A stretch of 64,000 bases of DNA. It comes from Minisyncoccota bacterium. Its GTDB lineage: Bacteria; Patescibacteriota; Minisyncoccia; Phycocordibacterales; UBA9973. The notes beneath the pieces are model-generated. The model did not search any database, was not told the origin of the DNA, and was given only the letters and a program-made list of their open reading frames with translations. Positions 3,116 through 50,135 of the stretch are shown here, piece after piece; position 1 is the stretch's first letter, and every line of letters begins with the position of its first letter. Location: positions 170,364 through 234,363 of the forward strand of contig JBAYUN010000001.1 in assembly GCA_041675085.1 (NCBI GenBank), written 5' to 3'. Both the position numbers and the translations under genes were made by a program.

Positions 3116-3715
3116 TTATTTATTTTTTGCTTTTTTATTTTTAATTAATTCTACGAATATCGGAACGATAGACAACAAGACAACAACTATCACTACGACG
3201 TGCATATAATCTTTAATACCAGGGAAAACATGGCCAAAGAAATATCCTACCAAGGTTACAGTAGTAGACCAGAGTAAAGAACCAAAGAAACTATATTTCA
3301 AAAACAATAAATAATTCATACGCGCGACTCCAGCTCCAATAGGAGTAAAAGTTCTTACAATAGGCACAAAACGAGATAATACAATGGCCACACGCCCATA
3401 TTTTTCAAAAAAGACTCGAGCTTGCTCGATATTTTTTTCTTTTAAAACTAATCGAAAAAAACTATACTTTCGGAGGTTTGGTAAATATACACCTATCTCA
3501 TACCCTACTACTGCCCCAAAAAAAGTACTAATAAATATCAGAGCAATGACTACATAAATATCCAAAAATCCTGACGCTGCAAAAAGCCCTACAGTAAAGA
3601 GCAAAGAATCTCCAGGCAAAGCAAAGAATATTCCTGATTCTAGAAATACAACTGTAAAAATCCCTACATAACCGTAAGTCTCTAGCAGATAATTTATATT
3701 AAATAATTCAAGCAT
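3116..3715 (-). CDS. DedA/SNARE-associated family membrane protein
   Basis: Polytopic membrane protein with LPGDSLLFTVGLFAASG motif characteristic of DedA. Confidence 0.7.
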   Translation of the reverse strand: MLELFNINYLLETYGYVGIFTVVFLESGIFFALPGDSLLFTVGLFAASGFLDIYVVIALIFISTFFGAVVGYEIGVYLPNLRKYSFFRLVLKEKNIEQARVFFEKYGRVAIVLSRFVPIVRTFTPIGAGVARMNYLLFLKYSFFGSLLWSTTVTLVGYFFGHVFPGIKDYMHVVVIVVVLLSIVPIFVELIKNKKAKNK

Positions 3716-6441: not shown

Positions 6442-6930
6442 ATGAAAACAAACAAAGGTTTTATGACAATAATCATAAGTATTATCGTCCTGACTAGTAT
6501 CGGAGGATTTCTATATTATCAAAATACGCAAAAAATAAATTCTACTGATGAGACAAATCTAGATTCAAACTCCACAATATTAATAGAGACTCAAAACTCA
6601 AATCTTGCACCGAAAGAGATTTTTATTAGAAGAATCACAGAGACAAATAATGCTAAAAATTTTGAAGAAGCTTTAGAAGTTATAAAAAAGTACGATACTA
6701 AAATCCAGATAGTGGAAAACAATTATGAAAATGCAAGCCCAGAAAAGAAACAAGCTCTATACACAATACTCCAAGGATTATTCCCTTCGATTGGAGATTT
6801 AAAAAATATTACTGAAGTTATCGAGAACGACAAAGCCAAAGTCACAGCCGAAACAAAAGACGGCGAAATAACTGCAGACTTTATCAAAGAAGAAGGTAAT
6901 TGGAAAATTTCTGACTTGTACGGATTTTAG
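6442..6930 (+). CDS. hypothetical membrane-anchored protein
   Basis: N-terminal TM, 162 aa, no recognised domain. Confidence 0.45.
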   Translation: MKTNKGFMTIIISIIVLTSIGGFLYYQNTQKINSTDETNLDSNSTILIETQNSNLAPKEIFIRRITETNNAKNFEEALEVIKKYDTKIQIVENNYENASPEKKQALYTILQGLFPSIGDLKNITEVIENDKAKVTAETKDGEITADFIKEEGNWKISDLYGF

Positions 6931-6995: not shown

Positions 6996-7475
6996 TTAGA
7001 TATATTCCTTGCCATTCCAAACAGCAAACCTATATCCTTTAGTGTCCAAGAACTCTTCAAATAAACTAATAGACTTATCCCCAACACCTCTAAAACCTTC
7101 AAATTTTTTACGTTGCCACAATAAAGCTTCTTTTAGTTTTAAGTTTTTATTATTAAAAAAAAGTTCCATTCTGTTACAGAACTGATTGACAGCTTTATAA
7201 CTATCTTTGTTAACATTTTTTACAGTCAACCTGAATTCATCGACAATATCAAGAAATTCTACTAAGCCTGCTCGCTCTAGCATAGAATTAAAATCTGCAG
7301 TTTTTTTCTTAGAAAGTTTTTTATAAAAATTAAAAGTTACCTTTATATGATTAGGTAAATTTGAGTTTGTAAAATATTCTTTCTTTATATCAGCTTTCTC
7401 ATCTAATATAGAAAGTAATTCATCTTTGCTAATACTCACCACGGTAGGCTTTCCTGCTTTCTTACTAACTTCCAT
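6996..7475 (-). CDS. hypothetical protein with helix-hairpin-helix-like C-terminus
   Basis: FEGFRGVGDKSISLFEEFLDTKGY resembles HhH (RpoA-CTD/PolX-like) motif; weak. Confidence 0.35.
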   Translation of the reverse strand: MEVSKKAGKPTVVSISKDELLSILDEKADIKKEYFTNSNLPNHIKVTFNFYKKLSKKKTADFNSMLERAGLVEFLDIVDEFRLTVKNVNKDSYKAVNQFCNRMELFFNNKNLKLKEALLWQRKKFEGFRGVGDKSISLFEEFLDTKGYRFAVWNGKEYI

Positions 7476-25872: not shown

Positions 25873-25944
25873 ACTCTCAATTATAGCAAAAAACCCATTG
25901 CATTTCTACAAGGGTTTTTTGTTAATTACTTTTCTAAAAATTTT

Positions 25945-25973
25945 GCCCTGTCAATCGCGACTGACGGGGTGAA
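25945..25973. repeat. GC-rich palindromic REP-like element, copy 1
   Basis: gccctgtcaatcgcgactgacggggtgaa just 3' of dnaK stop. Confidence 0.5.
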
Positions 25974-40491: not shown

Positions 40492-41778
40492 TTATGTAGG
40501 TAGATTTGTAGGTGGAGAAGCTTCTTTACTTTCAACACGTTCCAAAGTAGGAATTTTCAAGATTTGACCAGGGAAATGCCACAGGGTCGCTATCTCTTCT
40601 ACATTTAATACAAAAGTCGGTTGAGGCTTGTATGCCTTAAAAAACATAGGTGAAATAGGCCAAGGTAAATGCTCCGTATCAAAAAGCTCTTGTCTTAATT
40701 GACCATGATAAAAAGACCGTCCTCGGTATTCACCCAGCATCCTATTTGATAGCTCCATGACCTGCTCTTGGTTTAAAACAGTTATCAATCCACCATACGC
40801 ATCAGCTTGAGTGCCATTTACACGAGTAAAGCTATTCAAAGCAGGATTCGCATATTGTCTAAAAACCAATCTTAAATTACGTCTATTATTAGCATCAAAA
40901 TTTTCTTTTTTAGCAACATAGCAAGTACGCAAACCAACATCAAAACCTATCTTCTGCATCTTTGTACTAATACCTTTCACTTCAGCTTCCACAGCAAAAG
41001 GTGGTCTGACTTTTGTGAGAGTTTCTCCTTCTATAACATTCATGCGTGCATATTTTTCAAAAAGTCTTTCTAATTCTTGTTTAGATTCTTCAACCCAGTC
41101 ATGCTTCTTACCATCTGGTCCAGTAAAAGTATTCTTAGAAGGCCTTATTACCATTTGAAACCACATTTGCTCTCCTTTACCCATAGAAGCAAAAAGTTCA
41201 ATCAAAGGAGAAAGTGGATCAATTTTTAAAGTCTCTTCATCTTGTTCATCAAGTCCAAAATCGGCATAAGTTTTAATAGGATAAGCGTCAGGTTTTTCTA
41301 ATTTCCATTCACAACCATATAAATTCCACTGACTATCTGGAGTTATCTCGTCTACACCAAAAGTATAATCATCAACAACTCTAACTTGAGATTGAGGATA
41401 CTGTGCATACATTTGAGTTTCGATCAATCCTTTAATACGGCTCGGTGTACGAATATAAAAACGTACCTGCCCTTCAATAGATACAATTTCCAAAGAATAC
41501 CAAAACCATACTGCTCCTTGCCAGTATTCCTCACGTCCACCTTTCATACTCCAATGATAAAGAGCATTAGTAAAAAATAATTCCATAGCACGAGGACTAC
41601 GTAAAACCTCACGAGGTGGAATAACTTCCAATAATACATAATCAATACCAGAAATAAAACTCTGCTGGATATAATGCATCCACATAGCCCAAGCCATGCG
41701 ACCCAAAAAATATGTCAGGAATAAAATCCAAACAATATCTGGTATCCAATTAAAAATTTTAATCACAGCATCAAACAT
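40492..41778 (-). CDS. hypothetical membrane-anchored protein (428 aa)
   Basis: N-terminal TM, Trp-rich soluble domain; no recognised family. Confidence 0.45.
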   Translation of the reverse strand: MFDAVIKIFNWIPDIVWILFLTYFLGRMAWAMWMHYIQQSFISGIDYVLLEVIPPREVLRSPRAMELFFTNALYHWSMKGGREEYWQGAVWFWYSLEIVSIEGQVRFYIRTPSRIKGLIETQMYAQYPQSQVRVVDDYTFGVDEITPDSQWNLYGCEWKLEKPDAYPIKTYADFGLDEQDEETLKIDPLSPLIELFASMGKGEQMWFQMVIRPSKNTFTGPDGKKHDWVEESKQELERLFEKYARMNVIEGETLTKVRPPFAVEAEVKGISTKMQKIGFDVGLRTCYVAKKENFDANNRRNLRLVFRQYANPALNSFTRVNGTQADAYGGLITVLNQEQVMELSNRMLGEYRGRSFYHGQLRQELFDTEHLPWPISPMFFKAYKPQPTFVLNVEEIATLWHFPGQILKIPTLERVESKEASPPTNLPT

Positions 41779-41845
41779 AGTATTATTTTATCTTAAATAG
41801 ATAATAAAGTAAAAGAACCTCACTGTTTAGTGAGGTTCTTTTACT

Positions 41846-42880
41846 TTAAACTACGTTATAGAGTCCGTCTTTATTCTTTTTGAAATATTTTGAGTTAGCA
41901 AGATTTACTAAAATTGTATTTTTCTTAAAGTATCTCTCTTTCATAACTTTCTCAACAACATCTTCTTTAGTCATTGGACCTTCTTTTTTGATGATATCTT
42001 TTATCACATCACGAGCGATACCAGTCTTGTATCCCCACTCAGAAAGTGCATAAAGTCCACGTCCCACAAGCACAAATCTACTATCTTTGATAAGCTCATT
42101 GTGAGTCGTTGCGTAATGAGATTTTCTGCCGAAAGTTTTAGAGATAGAATCAGTTACTTCCTTGAAGTGCATTGGAGATCCATGTTTCCTCATAACAAGA
42201 AAAGCATAATCTTTCACTCCTCTAGTGTGTACGTTTTGAGAATTTGATTTACCCCAATCTCCTAGTGGATTCTTGGAAACTGTTTTTGATACAGCGAGCC
42301 ATCTCTTTGCCATTTCATCATTTTTGTAATGATCAGCTACGTCTTTCATTTGGTCGAAAAATCTCTTGATCATTTCTGTTTCAGGGATAAGGTCTTCGTC
42401 TTTTAGTGAAGCATAAAGTTTTTTCAAAGACTCATGAACCTTGTCTGCCATTTCGTCATCCACACTCCAGCGAGTTTTGAAATGATCATCTTCTTTGTGT
42501 TTTTTAAAAACATCTCCTAAAACTAGATAAAAATGAATATGATTTTGAACCGATTTATCTTTAGAGATATGATTCAAGAAATCGTGCTCAGATACTATCG
42601 AACCTAGAGAGTGAATAAGAGTTTTAATTTCTTCAAATAGAGCTTGTTCTGCTTTGAAGGCAGGAGATTTTTTGATTAAATTAATACTATTTTCTTTGAT
42701 TTGTCTAACTCTTTCTCTTGTTATGTTGTATTTTTTACCTATTTCTTCGAGAGTTTTGCGTTCTAGGTCGTTTGGATTTAATCCGAAACGGTTCATAATA
42801 ACATCACTTGCACGTTCTGGTAAGTGAGAGATTATTCTTTTTGTAACTTGTTTTGGCTTAAATGATATTGTGGATGACAT
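41846..42880 (-). CDS. sigma-70 region 4-like HTH plus C-terminal HARE-HTH-like domain protein
   Basis: N-terminus VIMNRFGL...KTLEEIGKKYNITRERVRQIKENSINLIKK (region 4.2-like); C-terminus AFLVMRKHGSPMHFKEVTDSI...DSRFVLVGRGLYALSEWGY (HARE-HTH-like). Confidence 0.5.
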   Translation of the reverse strand: MSSTISFKPKQVTKRIISHLPERASDVIMNRFGLNPNDLERKTLEEIGKKYNITRERVRQIKENSINLIKKSPAFKAEQALFEEIKTLIHSLGSIVSEHDFLNHISKDKSVQNHIHFYLVLGDVFKKHKEDDHFKTRWSVDDEMADKVHESLKKLYASLKDEDLIPETEMIKRFFDQMKDVADHYKNDEMAKRWLAVSKTVSKNPLGDWGKSNSQNVHTRGVKDYAFLVMRKHGSPMHFKEVTDSISKTFGRKSHYATTHNELIKDSRFVLVGRGLYALSEWGYKTGIARDVIKDIIKKEGPMTKEDVVEKVMKERYFKKNTILVNLANSKYFKKNKDGLYNVV

Positions 42881-42960
42881 AATTTTATTTGTTAATTATT
42901 TCTTAATATTAGTATACATTAGATTTAAATTCTGTCAAACTAACTGGTATGTTTTTAAAT

Positions 42961-44772
42961 CTATTTATTTCTATTAGCTTTGATTCTATCCATTTCAGTC
43001 AAAAACTTCTTGCGGAGTCTTACAGACTTTGGAGTAATTTCTAGATATTCATCATTACTCATAACTTCAAGTCCTCTTTCGATACTTAATGTGAAAGCTG
43101 GTTTCAAAACGATCATATCATCAGTACCTGAAGCACGCATGTTTGTAAGTTGTTTACCTTTTACTGGGTTGACTGCCATGTCTTCACCCTTTAAAACGTT
43201 ACCTATAACCATACCTTCATATACCTCTGTACCGTGATCTATATATAATATACCACGTTCTTGTAAATTTGCAAGTGCAAAAGCCACAGCCTTACCAGCA
43301 ATCATAGAAGACATAGATCCATACTCTCTTTTCTTGATTTCTCCAGCATAGTCTTTAAAGCCAATAACACGAGAAGACATGATTCCCTCTCCTTTTGTAT
43401 CTATAATAAATTCTCCTCTATATCCCAATAGTCCACGAGTTGGTATTTCAAAAACAATACGAGCTACGCCATCTTTGTCTTGCATGTCTTTCATAATACC
43501 TTTTCTTTTTCCAATCTTTTCGATAACACCTCCAGAAGACTCTGTCGGTACGTCTATTACCAATTCTTCGTAAGGTTCAGATTTGTGACCAGTTTCATCT
43601 GTCTTGACGATAACCTCTGGTTGAGATACTTGCATTTCAAATCCTTCACGGCGCATGTTTTCGAGTAAAACTGCTACATGCAATTCTCCACGTCCATAAA
43701 CTTTAAAGAAACTCGGACCTGATTTTACTTCACCTTGATCCGGAGAAAAATCTACACGCAATCCTACGTTGATTTCCAATTCTTTTTCCAATCTTTCTTT
43801 GATTTGTCTTGAAGTTACGAATTTACCTTCTTTACCTGCAAAAGGAGAATCGTTCACCAAAAAGTTAAGTGACAAAGTCGGCTCGTCGATAGCTATGTGA
43901 GGAAGCGCTTCTACACTCTCATCAGCACACAAAGTCTCTCCGATATAAATATCAGGAATACCAGCTAGCAATACAATGTCTCCAGATTCTGCCATGCTTA
44001 CGTCTTTACGAGCAATACCTTCGAAAGTAAATAATTTAGTGATTTTACCTACACGTGTACCATTTTCTCCTTTGACAAATATTTGCCCAGCAGAAGAAAG
44101 TTTACCTTTATAGATACGAGCTACAGCCATTCTACCCAAGAAGTTATCATATCCAAGGTTGAAAACTTGTGCTTGCATTTTTTCATCTCCATCTACAGAA
44201 GCTACTGGAACTGTCTCTAAGATCAATTCCAAAAGCGGTGAAAGGTCGGTTGACTCATCACCAATATTTTTAAATGCTTTACCGTCACGTCCGATAGCAT
44301 AGATAGTTTTGAAATCTGCTTGGTCTTCATTAGCACCGAGTTCAAAGAAAAGTTCTAAAACTTCGTCATGAACGCGAGCGATATCAGCTGCTGGTTTATC
44401 TATTTTATTAATAACAACGATAGGCTTTAATCCAAGCTCTAGAGATTTCTTTAATACGAAACGAGTTTGAGGCATAGGGCCTTCTACAGCATCCACCAAG
44501 AGCAATACAGAATCGATAGCACGCAACACACGTTCTACTTCAGAACCGAAGTCGGCGTGACCTGGAGTATCTACGATATTTATCTTTGTACCTTTATAAG
44601 TGATAGAAGTATTTTTTGAATAAATAGTAATACCACGCTCTTTTTCTATTGCATTCGAGTCCATAGAAAGACCTTCGTCTTGAAGTCCTCCGTTTTGCTT
44701 CATTAAAGCATCTGTTAAAGTTGTCTTACCATGGTCCACGTGAGCGATAATCGCAATATTCCTAATATCCAT
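42961..44772 (-). CDS. typA: translational GTPase TypA/BipA
   Basis: IRNIAIIAHVDHGKTTL, 603 aa EF-G-like domains. Confidence 0.9.
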   Translation of the reverse strand: MDIRNIAIIAHVDHGKTTLTDALMKQNGGLQDEGLSMDSNAIEKERGITIYSKNTSITYKGTKINIVDTPGHADFGSEVERVLRAIDSVLLLVDAVEGPMPQTRFVLKKSLELGLKPIVVINKIDKPAADIARVHDEVLELFFELGANEDQADFKTIYAIGRDGKAFKNIGDESTDLSPLLELILETVPVASVDGDEKMQAQVFNLGYDNFLGRMAVARIYKGKLSSAGQIFVKGENGTRVGKITKLFTFEGIARKDVSMAESGDIVLLAGIPDIYIGETLCADESVEALPHIAIDEPTLSLNFLVNDSPFAGKEGKFVTSRQIKERLEKELEINVGLRVDFSPDQGEVKSGPSFFKVYGRGELHVAVLLENMRREGFEMQVSQPEVIVKTDETGHKSEPYEELVIDVPTESSGGVIEKIGKRKGIMKDMQDKDGVARIVFEIPTRGLLGYRGEFIIDTKGEGIMSSRVIGFKDYAGEIKKREYGSMSSMIAGKAVAFALANLQERGILYIDHGTEVYEGMVIGNVLKGEDMAVNPVKGKQLTNMRASGTDDMIVLKPAFTLSIERGLEVMSNDEYLEITPKSVRLRKKFLTEMDRIKANRNK

Positions 44773-44893
44773 AAAATAATATTTCTAAGTTAATTATAAG
44801 TTAATAATTTAATAAGTTTGTATTAAATAAAAAAAGCCCAAAGGCTTAAAATTCAACATATTTATAATAGCACACTTTTTGAAAATAACAAAC

Positions 44894-44920
44894 CATGTCA
44901 GTCGCGACTAACGTGGTAAA
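44894..44920. repeat. REP-like palindrome, copy 3 (degenerate)
   Basis: catgtcagtcgcgactaacgtggtaaa. Confidence 0.45.
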
Positions 44921-44924
44921 TAAA

Positions 44925-44955
44925 TAGCCTGGTAAGCAAAGCTTACCAGGCTATT
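44925..44955. terminator. terminator hairpin for gene 44981..45649
   Basis: atagcctggtaagc-aaa-gcttaccaggctat, 14-bp perfect stem. Confidence 0.55.
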
Positions 44956-44980
44956 TGAAGGATTAATTTTAATCTTCGTT

Positions 44981-45649
44981 TTAAATTTCAAACAACAATC
45001 TTACATCAATAGGATCCTGGATTGAAATTTTTTTCACAATAAGTGAAGCAAGATTATTTTGAGAATTTAATATATTCCAATAATAATCAAAAACTTCTTC
45101 TATACTTTTTTGTAAAGGAACCAAGTATGGTTCACCTTTAAACGCAGGCAAAGGATTACCACTACCACTGTAAGTATTAAGGCAATAACCATATCCATCT
45201 ATGTCTTTTAAATTCCAAAAAGCAAACAATGGTTTTTTACCATGATCACTTTTTCTAATTATAGCTAGTTGATTTTTTAAAGTGCTATTTTCAGAAATAA
45301 TAGTGAGCCCAGCAATTCTGGGCGTATAATTTGGAGCATCTGGTTTATAAGACCATTCGTTTTTAAAATCAATAATTAGATTTTTCCCAAGTAAAGTTTT
45401 TGTATGAGTCCCGTTGCTAACAGCAAAGATATTCTCTATTGAAGGCATTGCATATGTTTCTTGTCGCATAGCCTCATAGACTACCTCATCTGCATTCGTC
45501 TTCATCATCCAAAAAATTTGAACAACAAATTTATTTATAACTCCAATTATTATACCATCTCCTGGATAAGGATTCTGACCTAGTTTGATTGCATTTGTCG
45601 CGGCTGTTTCCGCAGCTTGTAATTTTTGAAAATTTATATCATTTGTCAT
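44981..45649 (-). CDS. hypothetical protein (222 aa)
   Basis: No recognised domain. Confidence 0.45.
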   Translation of the reverse strand: MTNDINFQKLQAAETAATNAIKLGQNPYPGDGIIIGVINKFVVQIFWMMKTNADEVVYEAMRQETYAMPSIENIFAVSNGTHTKTLLGKNLIIDFKNEWSYKPDAPNYTPRIAGLTIISENSTLKNQLAIIRKSDHGKKPLFAFWNLKDIDGYGYCLNTYSGSGNPLPAFKGEPYLVPLQKSIEEVFDYYWNILNSQNNLASLIVKKISIQDPIDVRLLFEI

Positions 45650-45795
45650 GATGAAAAATTTAGTATGTTAAAGAAATATATTCAGATATACAGTACCACA
45701 TTTTACCAAAAAAAGCAAAGCTTCACAAACTTAAATACTAAAGTAACTGAAAAGATGCAAAAAAAATAAAAATATGTTATTTTATATATTGTAAA

Positions 45796-45857
45796 TGCGT
45801 CGGTGGTAGAGCTTGCCCCGTCAGTCGCGACTGACAGGGTGAATCAATTACAACAGA
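45796..45857 (+). other. duplicated 5' half of tRNA-Tyr (acceptor/D-arm and anticodon-stem 5' strand) with REP-like palindrome replacing the D-loop
   Basis: gcgtcggtggtagag + cttgccccgtcagtcgcgactgacagggtgaa + tcaattacaacagac; the same two 15-mers occur in intact tRNA-Tyr 22 nt downstream, separated there by tgg. Confidence 0.5.
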
Positions 45858-45879
45858 CATGTTTAGTCAAATTTAATAC

Positions 45880-45962
45880 GCGTCGGTGGTAGAGTGGTCA
45901 ATTACAACAGACTGTAAATCTGTCGCCTTCGGGCTACGAAGGTTCGAATCCTTCCCGGCGCA
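45880..45962 (+). tRNA. tRNA-Tyr (anticodon GTA)
   Basis: gcgtcgg..acaga-cTGTAaa-tctgt, long variable arm cgccttcgggcta, T-arm gaaggttcgaatccttc, acceptor ccggcgc. Confidence 0.85.
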
Positions 45963-45968
45963 CAACAA

Positions 45969-45990
45969 AATCCCGAAAGGGATTTTTTGC
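45969..45990 (+). terminator. terminator hairpin after tRNA-Tyr
   Basis: aaaatcccgaaagggatttttt. Confidence 0.55.
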
Positions 45991-46173
45991 GTCGGAGCGA
46001 GCCAACTGCTTGGCTCGTGAGAAGGATTCGAAAAGCTTTTCTGTATTTTTAAAAATCTTTGATTTTAAAAAATTAGAAAAGGTATACTGCTCCTGTAAGG
46101 AGAGAAATTCCTTCCCTGTATAATTACTTTTTTTCAACTTGCTGTTTAAATATAAAATAATATAATAAATCAT

Positions 46174-46947
46174 ATGAAAAACTATTATGAGATATTGGGT
46201 GTATCTAAAGACGCCTCGCAAGAAGATATTAAAAAAGCTTACTATGCATTAGCGCATAAATTCCACCCTGACAAAAATAATAGTGATAGCAGAATATTTA
46301 AAAATATAAACGAAGCATACGAGACCCTCTCTAACAAAGAAACAAAAGAAAAATATGATACAACGGTAAATCAGTCAAATAATGACGAAGAGATAATCCA
46401 CACGAACAACTTTGCATCGCTAAAGATTATAGTACTAATAATATTAATATTATTTTTTATTGGGAATTGGTTTAGTAGTCAAAATGATGAAACAAAAAAA
46501 GAAGAAAACAAAGATGCAATTAATTCAGAAACCCTGACAGTTAATGATTTTAAATTTATTAATTTAGGCAAAGATTCAATTACTCAAGATGGTTTAAAAT
46601 TTTCATCAGAAATTGTTGAAAATTTTGGAAATACTATTAACGATAATTTTTGGGGATATGAATATTTAAACAAAAAAACAGAAGGAAATTTTGTTAAATA
46701 TCAATTGAAAATTGAAAATACAGGTTCTTATGAATCAAATATTTTATTAAACATAAATAGTGTAAATGATGAGAAAAATAGAGTATTCAAAACTGAAACA
46801 ATAACAACAACTTGTGGAGAAAAATCAAGCATAAACAATTTGATAGTTAATTTAAAACCAGCAATACCATGTACTATTAACATACTTTTTGAGACATCAA
46901 AAGAATCTGAAGGATTTTTTCTAAATCTTTCATATAGAAAAAATTAA
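46174..46947 (+). CDS. J-domain (DnaJ-like) membrane-anchored protein
   Basis: MKNYYEILGVSKDASQEDIKKAYYALAHKFHPDKN then TM (IIVLIILILFFIGNWF) and a 160-aa extracytoplasmic domain. Confidence 0.7.
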   Translation: MKNYYEILGVSKDASQEDIKKAYYALAHKFHPDKNNSDSRIFKNINEAYETLSNKETKEKYDTTVNQSNNDEEIIHTNNFASLKIIVLIILILFFIGNWFSSQNDETKKEENKDAINSETLTVNDFKFINLGKDSITQDGLKFSSEIVENFGNTINDNFWGYEYLNKKTEGNFVKYQLKIENTGSYESNILLNINSVNDEKNRVFKTETITTTCGEKSSINNLIVNLKPAIPCTINILFETSKESEGFFLNLSYRKN

Positions 46948-46950
46948 TAA

Positions 46951-46988
46951 TTAAAAAATCCCTTATTATTTAATAAGGGATTTTTTAA
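46951..46988. terminator. bidirectional terminator
   Basis: aaaaatccctta-ttatttaa-taagggatttttt. Confidence 0.55.
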
Positions 46989-46989
46989 T

Positions 46990-49680
46990 TTAAACTTTTA
47001 TTTTACTTTTGATCTTAAGATTACTTTTAACCTTACCCTTTTTGATAGTTATGACTAGTTCATTGTTTTTCTCAGTGACTAATATAGTATCTCCTTTTTT
47101 TGCTCCATTTGAAATAATAAAACTAGCGACAGGATTCAAGATTTTAGTTTGAATAAGTCTGTTGAGTGGTCTCGCTCCATAATGCGGATCATACCCTTCT
47201 TTGGCCAAGTAGCTTAAAGCTTCTTCGGTAATATCAAGATTAATACCTTTAACATGAAGTCTTTCTCTCACAACACCAACGCGGATATTGACGATATCTT
47301 TTATAGCTTCTGGAGAGAGTATATCAAACAATACAATCTCATCAATACGATTCAAGAATTCTGGGCGAAAATGGTCTTTGAGAGACCCCATAACTTTTTC
47401 TTTTACTTCTTCATAATTTTGTTTTTCAGAATTATTTGAAAATCCAATAGATTCCATTTTCTCAATAAATTGAGAACCAATATTAGAAGTCATGATGATA
47501 ATAGTATTTTTAAAATTCACTACTCTACCCTTACCATCAGTCATGCGACCTTCGTCTAGCACAGATAACAACATATTGAAAACTTCAGGATGAGCCTTTT
47601 CTATTTCATCAAACAAGACTATCGCATACGGACGATGGCGGACCGCTTCGGTGAGTTGCCCTGCTTCATCGTGACCTACGTATCCTGGAGGTGAACCAAT
47701 AAGCTTAGAGACACTATGACGTTCCATGTATTCCGACATATCAACGCGTATGATAGCCTTCTCATCATTGAACATAAATTCACCAAGGGCTTTAGTGAGT
47801 TCAGTCTTACCTACTCCAGTCGGACCTAAGAAAATAAATGAACCAATAGGTTTATTTGGGTCACTTATACCAGCACGAGAACGACGTATCACATCAGAAA
47901 CACGCACCAAAGCATTATCTTGACCCATAACTCTAGAGCGGAGTTGGTCCTCCATTTTTTCCAATTTATCTCTCTCTTCTTCTAACATTTTAGAAACAGG
48001 AATACCTGTCCAGCGGGCGACAACTTCGGCTATATCCTCTTCGGTTATTTCTTCTTTCAAGATTCGGCGAGTCTTTTGCAATTTCTTTAGACGGATTAGT
48101 TTATTGTCCAATTCTTTTTTCAGAGTTGGTATCTTGCCGTAGCGAATCTCCGCCGCTAGAGATAGGTCTGAACTCATCTCAGCATTTTCCGCATCAACAC
48201 GAAGAGATTCTAAATCTTTTTTAATTGAGCGAATCTCTACTACTATGTTTCTTTCATTTTGCCACTTGAGTTCTAACTCTTTAGTTTTCTCGTAGAGATT
48301 ACCTATTTCAAGATCGATAACTTTAATTCTATTTTTTATTTCTTTGATTTTTTCTTTATCTATCTCAGATAGAGTGACTTCTTTTTTTAGAGCTTCTTTT
48401 TCTATTTCAAAACGCATGATTTTACGATGCGCATCTTCTAAAATTGGAGGTTTATTTTCCAAAGAAATTTTCAAAGAAGAAGAAGCCTCGTCGATAAGAT
48501 CGACAGCTTTGTCTGGTAGAAATCTATTGGTAATATATCGAGAAGATAAATTTACAGCCGAGATAATAGAGTCATCAGTAATACGAACACCATGGAAAAG
48601 CTCATACTTTTCTTTCAAACCTCGTAGTATAGCAATAGCGTCTTCAATACTAGGCTCATCAATATATACAGGTTGAAAACGTCTCGCTAGAGCTGGATCC
48701 TTTTCTATATGTTTTTGATATTCTTTCAAAGTTGTAGCACCTATCGCACGCAATTCTCCACGAGCGAGCGCCGGTTTCAACATATTAGAAGCGTCTAGAG
48801 TTCCTTCAGAACCACCAGCGCCTACGATAGTATGAATCTCATCAATAAAGAGGATTATTTTCCCGTCAGCTTTCTCTATCTCTTTCATGATCCCCTTTAA
48901 TCTCTCTTCAAATTCTCCTCTGTATTTTGTACCTGCGATAAGAGAACCTAGATCTAGAGATACTAATTCTTTATCTTTTAATGACTCAGGAACGTTGCCT
49001 TTTACGATACGCACAGCCAATCCTTCTACCACAGCAGTCTTACCAGTCCCCGCTTCACCTATCAATATCGGATTGTTTTTAGTACGACGAGACAAGATCT
49101 GCATAATACGCATAATCTCATTATCACGACCTATCACAGGATCGAGTTTGTCTTCACGAGCAAGCTTGGTCAGGTTGCGAGTGTATTTTAAAATCATTTT
49201 AAAAGGCTTGCCTGGTGAGACATCAGTAATATTTTGAGTACGTAATTCGTTTACAACTTTTATCACATCATCTTTGATGATTCTAAATTTTGATAAAGTC
49301 TCCCTAGCCTCTCCCGCAACATCAAGCATAGCTAAAAATAAATGCTCCGTCGAAACGAAATCATCTTTCATGAATTCTGCAACTTTTACAGAATATTCTA
49401 TAACTTGCGCCAAATCAGGATTCAAATAAATCTGATAAGCTGGCGATAAAGTTTGTTGCCCTTCAGGATTTTCAATAGCATCTAACACAGAATCAGATAA
49501 CAGTATTGTATCTACTTCTAATTTATCGAGTATAGAATTCACCATACTTTCTTCTTGTAAAATCAAAGCAGTTAAAAGATGCAAAGACGATACATGATTT
49601 TGACCGCGTTCGATAGCGAGCTCATGAGCCTTCTTGATTGCATCTTTTGCTTTGGTTGTAAATTTATTTAATGGTGGCAT
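46990..49680 (-). CDS. clpB: ClpB-type AAA+ disaggregase (Hsp100)
   Basis: Two AAA+ modules (GEAGTGKT; GPTGVGKTE), long middle coiled-coil, 896 aa. Confidence 0.85.
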
Positions 49681-49705
49681 ATGAGTTTAAAGTTAAATTA
49701 TAAAT

Positions 49706-50071
49706 TTATGATGTTGGATTTTCTGGCACTGTAGGGTCTTCTGTTGGTGTTTCTTCGCTCGGTACCTCTACTGGAGGTGGTGGCACTACGACTGGCGTTT
49801 CTTTTACTTCGTTTAGTTTATCTATTAATGGTTTTAAAGCTTTTAAATCGGCAAGTAATTTCTGTTCGTCTTCATTTAGATTACCTGTAGTTTCTACTTC
49901 GACGATTCTCTCTACGGTTTTTTGAACAACTTGAGTTATCGGGTTTTTAATACGGTCTGGAGTTTCGGCTAAAAGAGAATATGTAGTAATACTAGTCGCA
50001 ATAGACACAATAAAACATACCAATATTATAAGTAATATAAATTGCCCTTTGTTTAAATCTTTTATATCCAT
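49706..50071 (-). CDS. hypothetical membrane-anchored Pro-rich protein
   Basis: TM then coiled-coil then VVVPPPPVEVPSEETPTEDPTVPENP tail. Confidence 0.4.
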   Translation of the reverse strand: MDIKDLNKGQFILLIILVCFIVSIATSITTYSLLAETPDRIKNPITQVVQKTVERIVEVETTGNLNEDEQKLLADLKALKPLIDKLNEVKETPVVVPPPPVEVPSEETPTEDPTVPENPTS

Positions 50072-50135
50072 ACATCATTTATAGCACAAAACGAGATAAA
50101 AATTAAGTAAATTTTTCAAACCACAACTTAATAAA

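Follow-up and report, generated by a model that had tools for sequence, protein, structure and literature searches.

We analyzed a 64,000-nucleotide stretch of a Minisyncoccota bacterium genome (contig JBAYUN010000001.1, positions 170,364 to 234,363; hereafter the window), a low-GC (~33%) Patescibacteria sequence in which a tRNA-Tyr gene is preceded by a partial copy of itself and followed by a tRNA-like fragment. The intact tRNA-Tyr(GUA) gene occupies 45880..45963 on the plus strand, like the other features between 45754 and 46122 described below, and has no encoded CCA (ARAGORN; Rfam RF00005, 60.3 bits), with its end called at 45962/3 by ARAGORN and Rfam. Upstream, positions 45797..45811 repeat tRNA nucleotides 1-15, comprising the 5′ strand of the acceptor stem and the start of the D arm, and positions 45844..45858 repeat nucleotides 19-33, comprising the rest of the D arm, the 5′ strand of the anticodon stem and the first loop base, each with 15/15 identity. 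Between these two parts of the half-tRNA copy, hereafter the decoy, the D-loop TGG is replaced by a 32-nt insert (c-TTGCCCC-GTCAGTCGCGACTGAC-AGGGTGAA, 45812..45843), an inverted repeat containing the 24-nt palindrome CCCCGTCAGTCGCGACTGACAGGG at 45816-45839. A 21-nt spacer (ATG TTT AGT CAA ATT TAA tac, 45859..45879) then leads into the intact tRNA. A first-pass annotation made from the sequence alone had correctly recognized both 15-nt repeats and placed their start at 45796 and the gap at 22 nt, each one nucleotide off. In repeat and blastn-short searches each 15-mer has E = 0.004 against the 64-kb window and E = 1e-4 against the 1.6-kb neighborhood, and the two lie in the correct order. The same locus sequence is found in the independent Logan assembly SRR6484325 and is therefore not an artefact of a single assembly, and none of the six other tRNA genes in the window (0/6) has a flanking tRNA copy.

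Comparison with relatives delimits the upstream structure as a discrete insertion or deletion. A search of GTDB genomes for close relatives with the 222-amino-acid protein encoded beside the tRNA found no match, this protein being unusually diverged, and the comparison loci L005/L006 and L007 were reached by exact-protein look-ups on its homologues. The window, L005/L006 and L007 share the gene order clpB ... tRNA-Tyr - purO - bipA, with identities to the window of 97% for BipA, 95% for ClpB and ~82-86% overall at the nucleotide level; the surrounding 9 kb (41065-50072) can be aligned with L005, where the called genes encode ClpB, a small open reading frame (ORF) product, PurO, BipA, a sigma-like protein and a DUF8128 protein. 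An apparent unusual conservation of the intergenic region was discounted as an effect of the 45% identity of PurO, since nucleotide identity to L005 is ~85% genome-wide. In L005, L006 and L007 the sequence ...tatatattgtaaat runs directly into a tRNA-Tyr gene 100% identical to that of the window, and the alignment shows the window to be longer by exactly 83 bp, supplying the empty site that the first-pass annotation had proposed to seek among relatives. The conserved block gatgcaaaaaaaa...tattttatatattgtaaat (45754..45796), a probable tRNA-Tyr promoter region, adjoins tRNA nucleotide 1 in all three relatives, so the upstream structure is a discrete lineage-specific indel; in the window and in three cassette-bearing loci described below (L109, L130 and L133) the same block adjoins the half-tRNA copy and not the tRNA. 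A simple promoter consensus scan made no call at 45754..45796.

The decoy has counterparts in intact genetic cassettes at tRNA-Tyr genes of other Patescibacteria. A one-genome-per-species scan for a half-tRNA with a 3-33-nt gap in the D loop retrieved more than 120 tRNA-Tyr loci. The pattern matched twice in locus L054, and motif and tblastn scans of the retrieved loci added L026 and L069. The first L054 copy reads gcgtcggtggtagag-cTTGCCCCgccaaggcGGGGTGAAg-tcaattacaacagac, with the hairpin base and position seen in the window. After the decoy in each of these three loci comes an ATG opening an ORF of 78-80 amino acids, and 1-7 nt separate its stop codon from the intact tRNA-Tyr. These ORFs hit the GIY-YIG nuclease domain PF01541 at E = 1e-15 to 1e-17 over residues 1-67, and their alignment shows invariant motif tyrosines together with invariant Arg, His and Glu columns; we take these to be active-site residues of the GIY-YIG fold. 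Scanning metagenomes for the junction between decoy and hairpin yielded L130 and L133, where the decoy spans the anticodon loop (...acagacTGTAAAAacaATGTGG), as well as the ORF-less loci L129 and L131 described below. The junction with the following sequence, noted in the first pass as falling in the anticodon loop, does so in these intact elements as well (...acagacTGTAAAAacaATG in L130 and L133). Intact tRNA-Tyr cassettes are present in L054, L026 (=L128), L069, L130, L133 and L156-L164, and L146 has a second tRNA-Tyr type.

Both the hairpin and the spacer tie the window locus to these cassettes. The hairpin base cTTGCCCC...GGGGTGAA is located identically within the D loop of the window decoy and of other Patescibacteria cassettes; the base CTTGCCCC/GGGTGAA and its position are common to the hairpins of the window, L026, L054, L069, L130, L133 and L156, and such a GC hairpin, alike in base and D-loop position, recurs in the cassettes of nine or more other assemblies and also in tRNA-Ser cassettes. 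In a table of junctions, the intact cassette ORF begins with ATGTGG after the decoy and ends with ...TTATTAAATAAGTAAT just before the tRNA, and the window spacer, ATGT-TTAGTCAAATTTAATAC, resembles the ORF start joined to this 3′ end. Shorter, 70-bp forms without an ORF exist in L109, L129 and L131, and their spacer (TTATCAAATAATTAT) resembles the ORF 3′ end alone. At this conserved target, relatives therefore carry both empty alleles (L005-L007) and, in many assemblies, alleles occupied at an identical point of tRNA-Tyr; an intact GIY-YIG ORF is present in L054, L026 and L069 and absent at the window locus. The insertion is found in the window, absent from its nearest relatives and present in relatives of 75% identity. 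A different arrangement is seen in L018 (reverse complement 934-1098), where a duplicate of tRNA-Tyr nucleotides 1-18 with the D-loop TGG intact is followed by 147 nt of unrelated GC-rich sequence and then the intact tRNA, with two tandem units resembling the downstream element described below on the far side of that tRNA.

The palindrome within the window insert belongs to a dispersed family. Its core recurs at 25950-25965 and 44897-44912, giving six strand-matches against 0.01 expected by chance, in agreement with its first-pass description as resembling a repetitive extragenic palindromic (REP) sequence. The second copy (TTGCCCTGTCAATCGCGACTGACGGGGTGAA, 25943..25973, intergenic) has the TTGCCC/GGGGTGAA flanks of the cassette hairpin, yet no tRNA sequence surrounds it. 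The third, more diverged copy (CCATGTCAGTCGCGACTAACGTGG, 44890..44917, between purO and bipA) carries a compensatory C-G to A-T change in 44897-44912, is present in L005/L006 and aligns to a clean 28-bp gap in L007. All three window copies (3/3) are intergenic, and a short imperfect palindrome repeated in intergenic DNA this far above chance is REP-like. The family shares with REP sequences and bacterial interspersed mosaic elements an imperfect palindrome of 24-31 nt, several intergenic copies and indel polymorphism between relatives, and differs from them in that one copy occupies the conserved hairpin position of a cassette decoy. Kink-turn, promoter and terminator identities were considered for the decoy hairpin and dropped, inspection being unconvincing and consensus scans making no call.

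Cassettes of the same kind are present at several other tRNA genes. A profile built from six ORFs retrieved 2349 proteins at E <= 1e-8; among the best 120 of these, nearly all are ~80-120 amino acids long and those with a named source come from Patescibacteria. Among solved structures, the family comes closest to the UPF0213 proteins EF2693 and BH0048 (96-107 amino acids) and to SLX1. It is the small, structure-specific branch of the superfamily and lacks the DNA-binding domains of I-TevI and the Seg proteins. Each of the eight genomic contexts retrieved from protein matches alone proved to be a tRNA gene (8/8), and a profile scan of ~1 Mb of collected loci placed every family ORF in or beside a tRNA cassette, with the intact tRNA at most 400 nt away or closing an array. 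The shared order is a decoy running from tRNA nucleotide 1 to the anticodon loop, an ORF whose ATG lies 1-4 nt after the loop remnant, and the intact tRNA, which begins 1-8 nt past the stop codon or overlaps it. The ORF, of 78-90 amino acids, encodes little beyond the GIY-YIG catalytic domain, the decoy is interrupted, at a point that varies across cassettes, by a CCCCGCC..GGCGGGG-type GC hairpin, and the whole cassette sits between the conserved upstream region of the tRNA and the tRNA itself. Decay of the decoy or ORF is seen in L137, L156, L109 and the window.

Individual loci illustrate the range of this family. An array of at least six tandem units with a 339-bp period lies upstream of an intact tRNA-Ser(CGA) in L134-L136 (ENA ERZ25039459 contig_57369); each unit consists of tRNA-Ser(CGA) nucleotides 1-36, a hairpin region and an ORF, and two ORF variants alternate in the order A-B-A-B. 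At tRNA-Ser(GGA), L141 carries the decoy ggagggttcgcatag[cccccgccaagcggggtaaag]gtctag... and L170 is a Moranbacteria cassette; at tRNA-Ser(UGA), L137 has two hairpins in its decoy and further decoy units without an ORF. The second tRNA-Tyr type in L146 has a hairpin in place of an anticodon-stem strand, and a further tRNA-Tyr cassette recurs in 24 contigs (L155-L164). Forms on the 3′ side of the tRNA also exist: one follows tRNA-Lys (L144), and another, on the strand opposite to the L134-L136 array, follows a divergent tRNA-Ser(GGA) at that locus. In viruses, proteins related to the ORF share only 36-40% identity with it and none is encoded beside a tRNA, giving no sign of phage carriage. A full-text literature search found no description of GIY-YIG cassettes that duplicate half of a tRNA at bacterial tRNA genes, nor of the downstream element.

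The fragment downstream of the tRNA proved to be the 5′ arm of a separate element of 134 nt (45989..46122), which we call X. It follows a terminator-like hairpin read from the sequence (aaaatccc-gaaa-gggatttttt, 45964..45988), for which a simple terminator scan made no call. The 5′ arm gcgtcgg (45989-45995) equals the 5′ acceptor strand of the tRNA and is complementary to the 3′ acceptor strand. Hairpin 1 (45997-46018) is followed by GAAGGATTCGAA (46021-46032); at these positions gaaggattcgaa is the exact reverse complement of the tRNA T loop and 3′ T-stem strand (12/12), and the piece first described as T-arm-like is thus a mirror copy and not a T arm with an extra base. A variable stem-loop 2 (46034-46083) then leads through GTATACTG to hairpin 3 (46090-46102), with an invariant GTA loop at 46095-46097, and to the 3′ arm TCCTTC (46109-46114). 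Complete copies end in GGCGCA, which the window copy lacks, as do those of L005, L059, L103 and L127. X is also conserved in L005/L006, where the upstream insert is absent, so that the fragment is not a scar of the same event as the decoy, contrary to the initial proposal. In L005/L006 X is itself split by a different 20-nt palindrome, cctgcctgccggtaggcagg (L005 3678-3697), inserted exactly at its GAAG/GATTCGAA junction. Non-essential sequence derived from tRNAs seems to gather GC hairpins.

X was recognized from the sequence 3′ of 109 tRNA-Tyr genes, and follows about one quarter of those sampled. Copies are 116-158 nt long, are placed right after the tRNA terminator and share a mirrored T arm (GGATTCGAA), GTRTACTG before hairpin 3 and an end, AGAAATTCCTTCCCGGCGCA, that directly copies the tRNA 3′ end. 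Of the 24 consensus pairs in an alignment of 16 copies, 16 show compensatory changes; 90.3% of cells pair, compared with 42-55% in slid controls, and the covariation score of 0.509 exceeds both the slid controls (<=0.149) and all shuffles (0/500 reaching the observed value). A covariance model gives 29 hits in the window and 97 loci, including the window copy at 130.9 bits, a value to be read with that copy being in the training set; RNAfold gives the window copy z = -3.4. Copies after tRNA-Leu(CAA), tRNA-Leu(CAG) and tRNA-Trp have arms matching those tRNAs around an unchanged core that includes TGTAA. The termini therefore copy whichever tRNA (Tyr, Leu or Trp) lies upstream and are not encoded by the element. 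A repeat search between tRNA ends and X ends found exact direct repeats of 15-19 nt and inverted repeats of 16-22 nt (palindromes measured in L021 and L030), so that the tRNA 3′ end, the apparent terminator and the X 5′ arm form one long palindrome centered on the terminator loop. In a comparison with miniature inverted-repeat transposable elements, the inverted termini of X measure ~13-20 nt.

A possible origin of X comes from locus L107, where a GIY-YIG ORF 36% identical to the 5′-type lies right after GTACTTGTAA and before ...ggagaaattcctacccggcgca, occupying the place of hairpin 3 in X. On this evidence X may be an ORF-less, non-autonomous form of a 3′-side cassette, a suggestion based on this single locus. 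We also considered and rejected two identities for X: mimicry of the Tyr anticodon by hairpin 3, as X copies after tRNA-Leu and tRNA-Trp also keep TGTAA, and a small or permuted transfer-messenger RNA (tmRNA) or other known RNA, there being no ARAGORN or Rfam match, no G3:U70 (the pair is G3-C70, as in tRNA-Tyr) and no tag frame. No Rfam match for X appeared even at E <= 10. Locus L030 (JBAXSP010000002.1) carries four X-like copies within 8 kb (1036-1145, 2668-2798, 6507-6664 and 7077-7208), which follow tRNA-Leu, tRNA-Trp and tRNA-Tyr, with one lacking an adjoining tRNA.

Because the decoy, the hairpin and the ORF-end-like spacer resemble those of the cassettes, we read 45797-45879 as a cassette whose ORF has been deleted, and because no ORF remains at the locus we class it as a relic and not as an active member of the family. 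We assign a probability of roughly 0.78 to this reading, in which the 83 bp are an ORF-less relic of a small Patescibacteria tRNA cassette and the downstream fragment is the 5′ arm of the separate element X. The spacer, probably the joined ends of a deleted GIY-YIG ORF although the similarity is short, suggests that the ORF was lost by internal deletion in the window lineage, leaving an ATG...TAA remnant of five sense codons. The relic is presumably inert except as an 83-nt leader of the tRNA-Tyr precursor.

Several observations weigh against this interpretation. The 64-kb window contains no GIY-YIG homologue, and the connection between relic and cassettes is drawn from the decoy-plus-hairpin architecture and a 21-nt spacer too short for statistics. 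The apex of the window hairpin differs from that of all intact cassettes, and independent insertion of a palindrome into a duplicate retains some residual probability. The distribution among relatives fits either gain or loss. For a homing element, the cassettes are also unusual: their ORFs (78-90 amino acids, PF01541 residues 1-67) have no DNA-binding or recognition domain, and the intact tRNA beside a cassette is identical to that of cassette-free alleles and so confers no obvious immunity. The A-B-A-B order of the tRNA-Ser array suggests unequal recombination rather than repeated invasion. With respect to X, selection for pairing could operate at the level of DNA instead of RNA, and just one ORF-bearing version was seen.

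For the intact cassettes we propose a homing-like cycle. The predicted nuclease would cut tRNA genes that lack a cassette, and the ORF would be copied in during repair from an occupied allele, with the duplicated 5′ half keeping the tRNA whole and so preserving an essential gene. Since the cassette lies between the upstream region and the tRNA, the ORF should be transcribed from the tRNA promoter, and RNase P would free the tRNA from the co-transcript. The hairpin may persist by breaking a 38-nt direct repeat that would otherwise delete the cassette, or may instead stabilize the 5′ end of the mRNA or form a structure recognized by the nuclease. In the window, the hairpin apex would have been replaced by the genome's own dispersed palindrome. 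A more far-reaching proposal, which we regard as tentative and on balance doubtful, is that the decoy, the hairpin and X are working parts of an undescribed class of minimal tRNA-gene parasites. Here an 80-amino-acid SLX1/UPF0213-like nuclease would be guided by nucleic-acid structure or by a transcribed half-tRNA-plus-hairpin module, expressed through the tRNA promoter and RNase P processing. X would be a non-autonomous partner, its ends rebuilt for each target tRNA as a mirror and a direct copy by break repair or fold-back, and may be excised as a tRNA-like RNA.

Other origins of the 83 bp account for parts of the evidence. The 5′ half of the tRNA could have been duplicated in tandem in situ, by slippage or unequal exchange, and later invaded by a REP-like palindrome without ever having been a cassette. 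This would suit the absence of a GIY-YIG gene from the window, the identity of the apex GTCAGTCGCGACTGAC as a dispersed, indel-polymorphic repeat of this genus, and the copy at 25943, which has the TTGCCC/GGGGTGAA flanks outside any tRNA context. A simple tandem duplication would not, however, produce a 21-nt non-tRNA spacer; other lineages have ORF-less forms whose spacer is similar, and the position, the extra c and the hairpin base of 8 nt plus 7 nt match GIY-YIG cassettes in many unrelated assemblies. The recurrence of this same-base hairpin at the same D-loop position speaks against a REP having acted independently on a pre-existing duplicate, and we consider an in-situ origin improbable. 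Mere chance resemblance is negligible: the region is AT-rich and stems render tRNAs self-similar, but two ordered exact 15-mers with the local E values given above, together with a discrete 83-bp indel, place the similarity above chance, as the earlier annotation had asked to be verified by formal alignment.

Tyrosine-integrase activity was the explanation first put forward: an element that brought a replacement 5′ half, integrated at an anticodon-loop attachment site (attB) and was then almost entirely deleted would leave attL and attR 21 nt apart, with the downstream piece as a further attachment-site remnant. The end of identity at the anticodon loop, the status of tRNA genes as classic attachment sites and the variation of purO and the J-domain gene among relatives agree with such a scar. 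Yet the sole insert relative to the empty site is 83 bp, and intact homologues bracket only a ~240-nt GIY-YIG ORF in a ~300-bp cassette. The called L005 genes in the syntenic block 41065-50072 include no integrase or other recombinase (integrases were not searched for in the rest of the window), and the half-tRNA, with or without its D-loop insert, gave 0 hits in a scan of viral contigs. The downstream piece is older than the 83-bp insert, and members of its family occur beside other tRNAs too. The idea of a mobile-element scar targeting a tRNA gene thus stands, nothing suggests a tyrosine integrase or an attB/attP exchange, and we judge an integrase scar very improbable. A role for the decoy and hairpin as a leader regulating tRNA-Tyr maturation, for example by competition between 5′ strands, with X as a tRNA-like regulatory RNA, would be compatible with a mobile origin. 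Both 15-mers remain 100% identical to the tRNA, X shows covariation and G-U pairs on the plus strand, and in the RNAfold minimum-free-energy structure of the decoy-plus-tRNA transcript (45797-45963) the decoy GCGUCGG, and not the tRNA's own strand, pairs with the 3′ acceptor strand. The relic could accordingly interfere with folding of the tRNA precursor, although this is only a thermodynamic hint. The closest relatives nevertheless lack the decoy and have an identical tRNA, decoys decay elsewhere (L137 and L156) and their distribution is patchy, making a selected leader function quite improbable.

Taken as a family, the cassettes appear from sequence comparison to be a variant of free-standing homing-type nuclease genes for which we found no published description. 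Seg proteins of phage T4 and I-TevI exceed 200 amino acids and have a DNA-binding domain. The cassettes resemble the T4 Seg system in having a GIY-YIG gene outside introns, among or against tRNA genes, with presence/absence polymorphism and presumed spread by break repair, whereas the Patescibacteria ORFs have 78-90 amino acids with the catalytic domain only, are chromosomal, copy half of the tRNA that they target, come with a conserved GC hairpin and are predicted, from sequence, to cleave DNA. Free-standing endonuclease ORFs in mitochondria (for example at Allomyces atp6) bring a replacement gene segment, and the displaced part becomes a pseudogene. Here too an ORF with a duplicated segment keeps the host gene whole beside a decaying partial copy, although the target is a tRNA, the 5′ half is duplicated, the displaced copy is interrupted by a hairpin and the hosts are bacterial. 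The T4 SegB gene itself is located in the T4 tRNA gene cluster (PMC2330249). Within the same phylum-level group of hosts, rRNA genes of the candidate phyla radiation contain GIY-YIG ORFs in non-intron insertion sequences (PMC11270868). Both cases place GIY-YIG ORFs in stable-RNA genes without a recognizable group I or group II intron; compared by description, the rRNA insertions differ in lying inside the rRNA, where they are removed or tolerated, and PMC11270868 does not mention tRNA genes or target duplication.

The locus also has superficial counterparts among genomic islands and structured RNAs. As with islands at tRNA attachment sites, a partial tRNA copy lies beside an intact tRNA with its boundary in the anticodon or T loop; there is, however, no integrase and no island, the total is 83-314 bp and it is the 5′ half that is duplicated. 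X recalls tRNA-like RNAs, among them tmRNA including its permuted two-piece form, YrlA and viral tRNA-like structures, in having an acceptor-like terminal helix stacked on a T-stem-like helix, and the motif GGAUUCGA follows the 5′ strand in tmRNA as it does in X. It differs from them in having no Rfam match, G3:U70, tag frame or complete T arm, and in ends that change with the neighboring tRNA.

The window locus is, on our reading, a dead relic beside an intact tRNA-Tyr that is probably transcribed with an 83-nt leader, and the family to which it leads has wider significance. tRNA genes, the classic landing sites of integrase-borne islands, appear here to be used by a far smaller parasite consisting of a nuclease domain and half a tRNA, with thousands of family proteins in the ultra-small, reduced genomes of Patescibacteria. 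Such cassettes would explain odd half-tRNA and tRNA-like-fragment signals that annotation pipelines and attachment-site predictors would mistake for scars of integration. With alleles that are occupied, empty or decayed, they offer a natural set for studying how a GIY-YIG enzyme with a catalytic domain only finds its target, and termini re-derived from each neighboring tRNA, as in X, are predicted by no standard transposition or integration mechanism.

The genes adjoining the locus, which the first-pass annotation regarded as possible cargo remnants, do vary among relatives on both sides. The 222-amino-acid protein listed there as unknown (44981-45649, minus strand) is an IMP cyclohydrolase (PF07826, purO) in the syntenic block, 45% identical to 260-amino-acid positional counterparts in L005 and L007. 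These counterparts differ from each other at 35% of positions, and the flanking BipA and ClpB are 95-97% identical to those of the window. In the more distant syntenic loci L129, L049 and L082, purO is absent between bipA and tRNA-Tyr. From these comparisons purO looks like a fast-evolving or repeatedly replaced gene in a variable slot beside the tRNA. On the other side, a gene for a J-domain membrane protein (46174-46947, plus strand) lies between X and clpB, and L005 has an unrelated 85-amino-acid ORF in its place (3139-3581), such that gene content differs on both flanks of the tRNA-Tyr/X unit within an otherwise conserved bipA...clpB frame. Also in L005 (434-3123), clpB is represented by two ORFs of 479 and 424 amino acids, compared with a single 896-amino-acid ORF in the window, possibly reflecting a frameshift or an assembly error.

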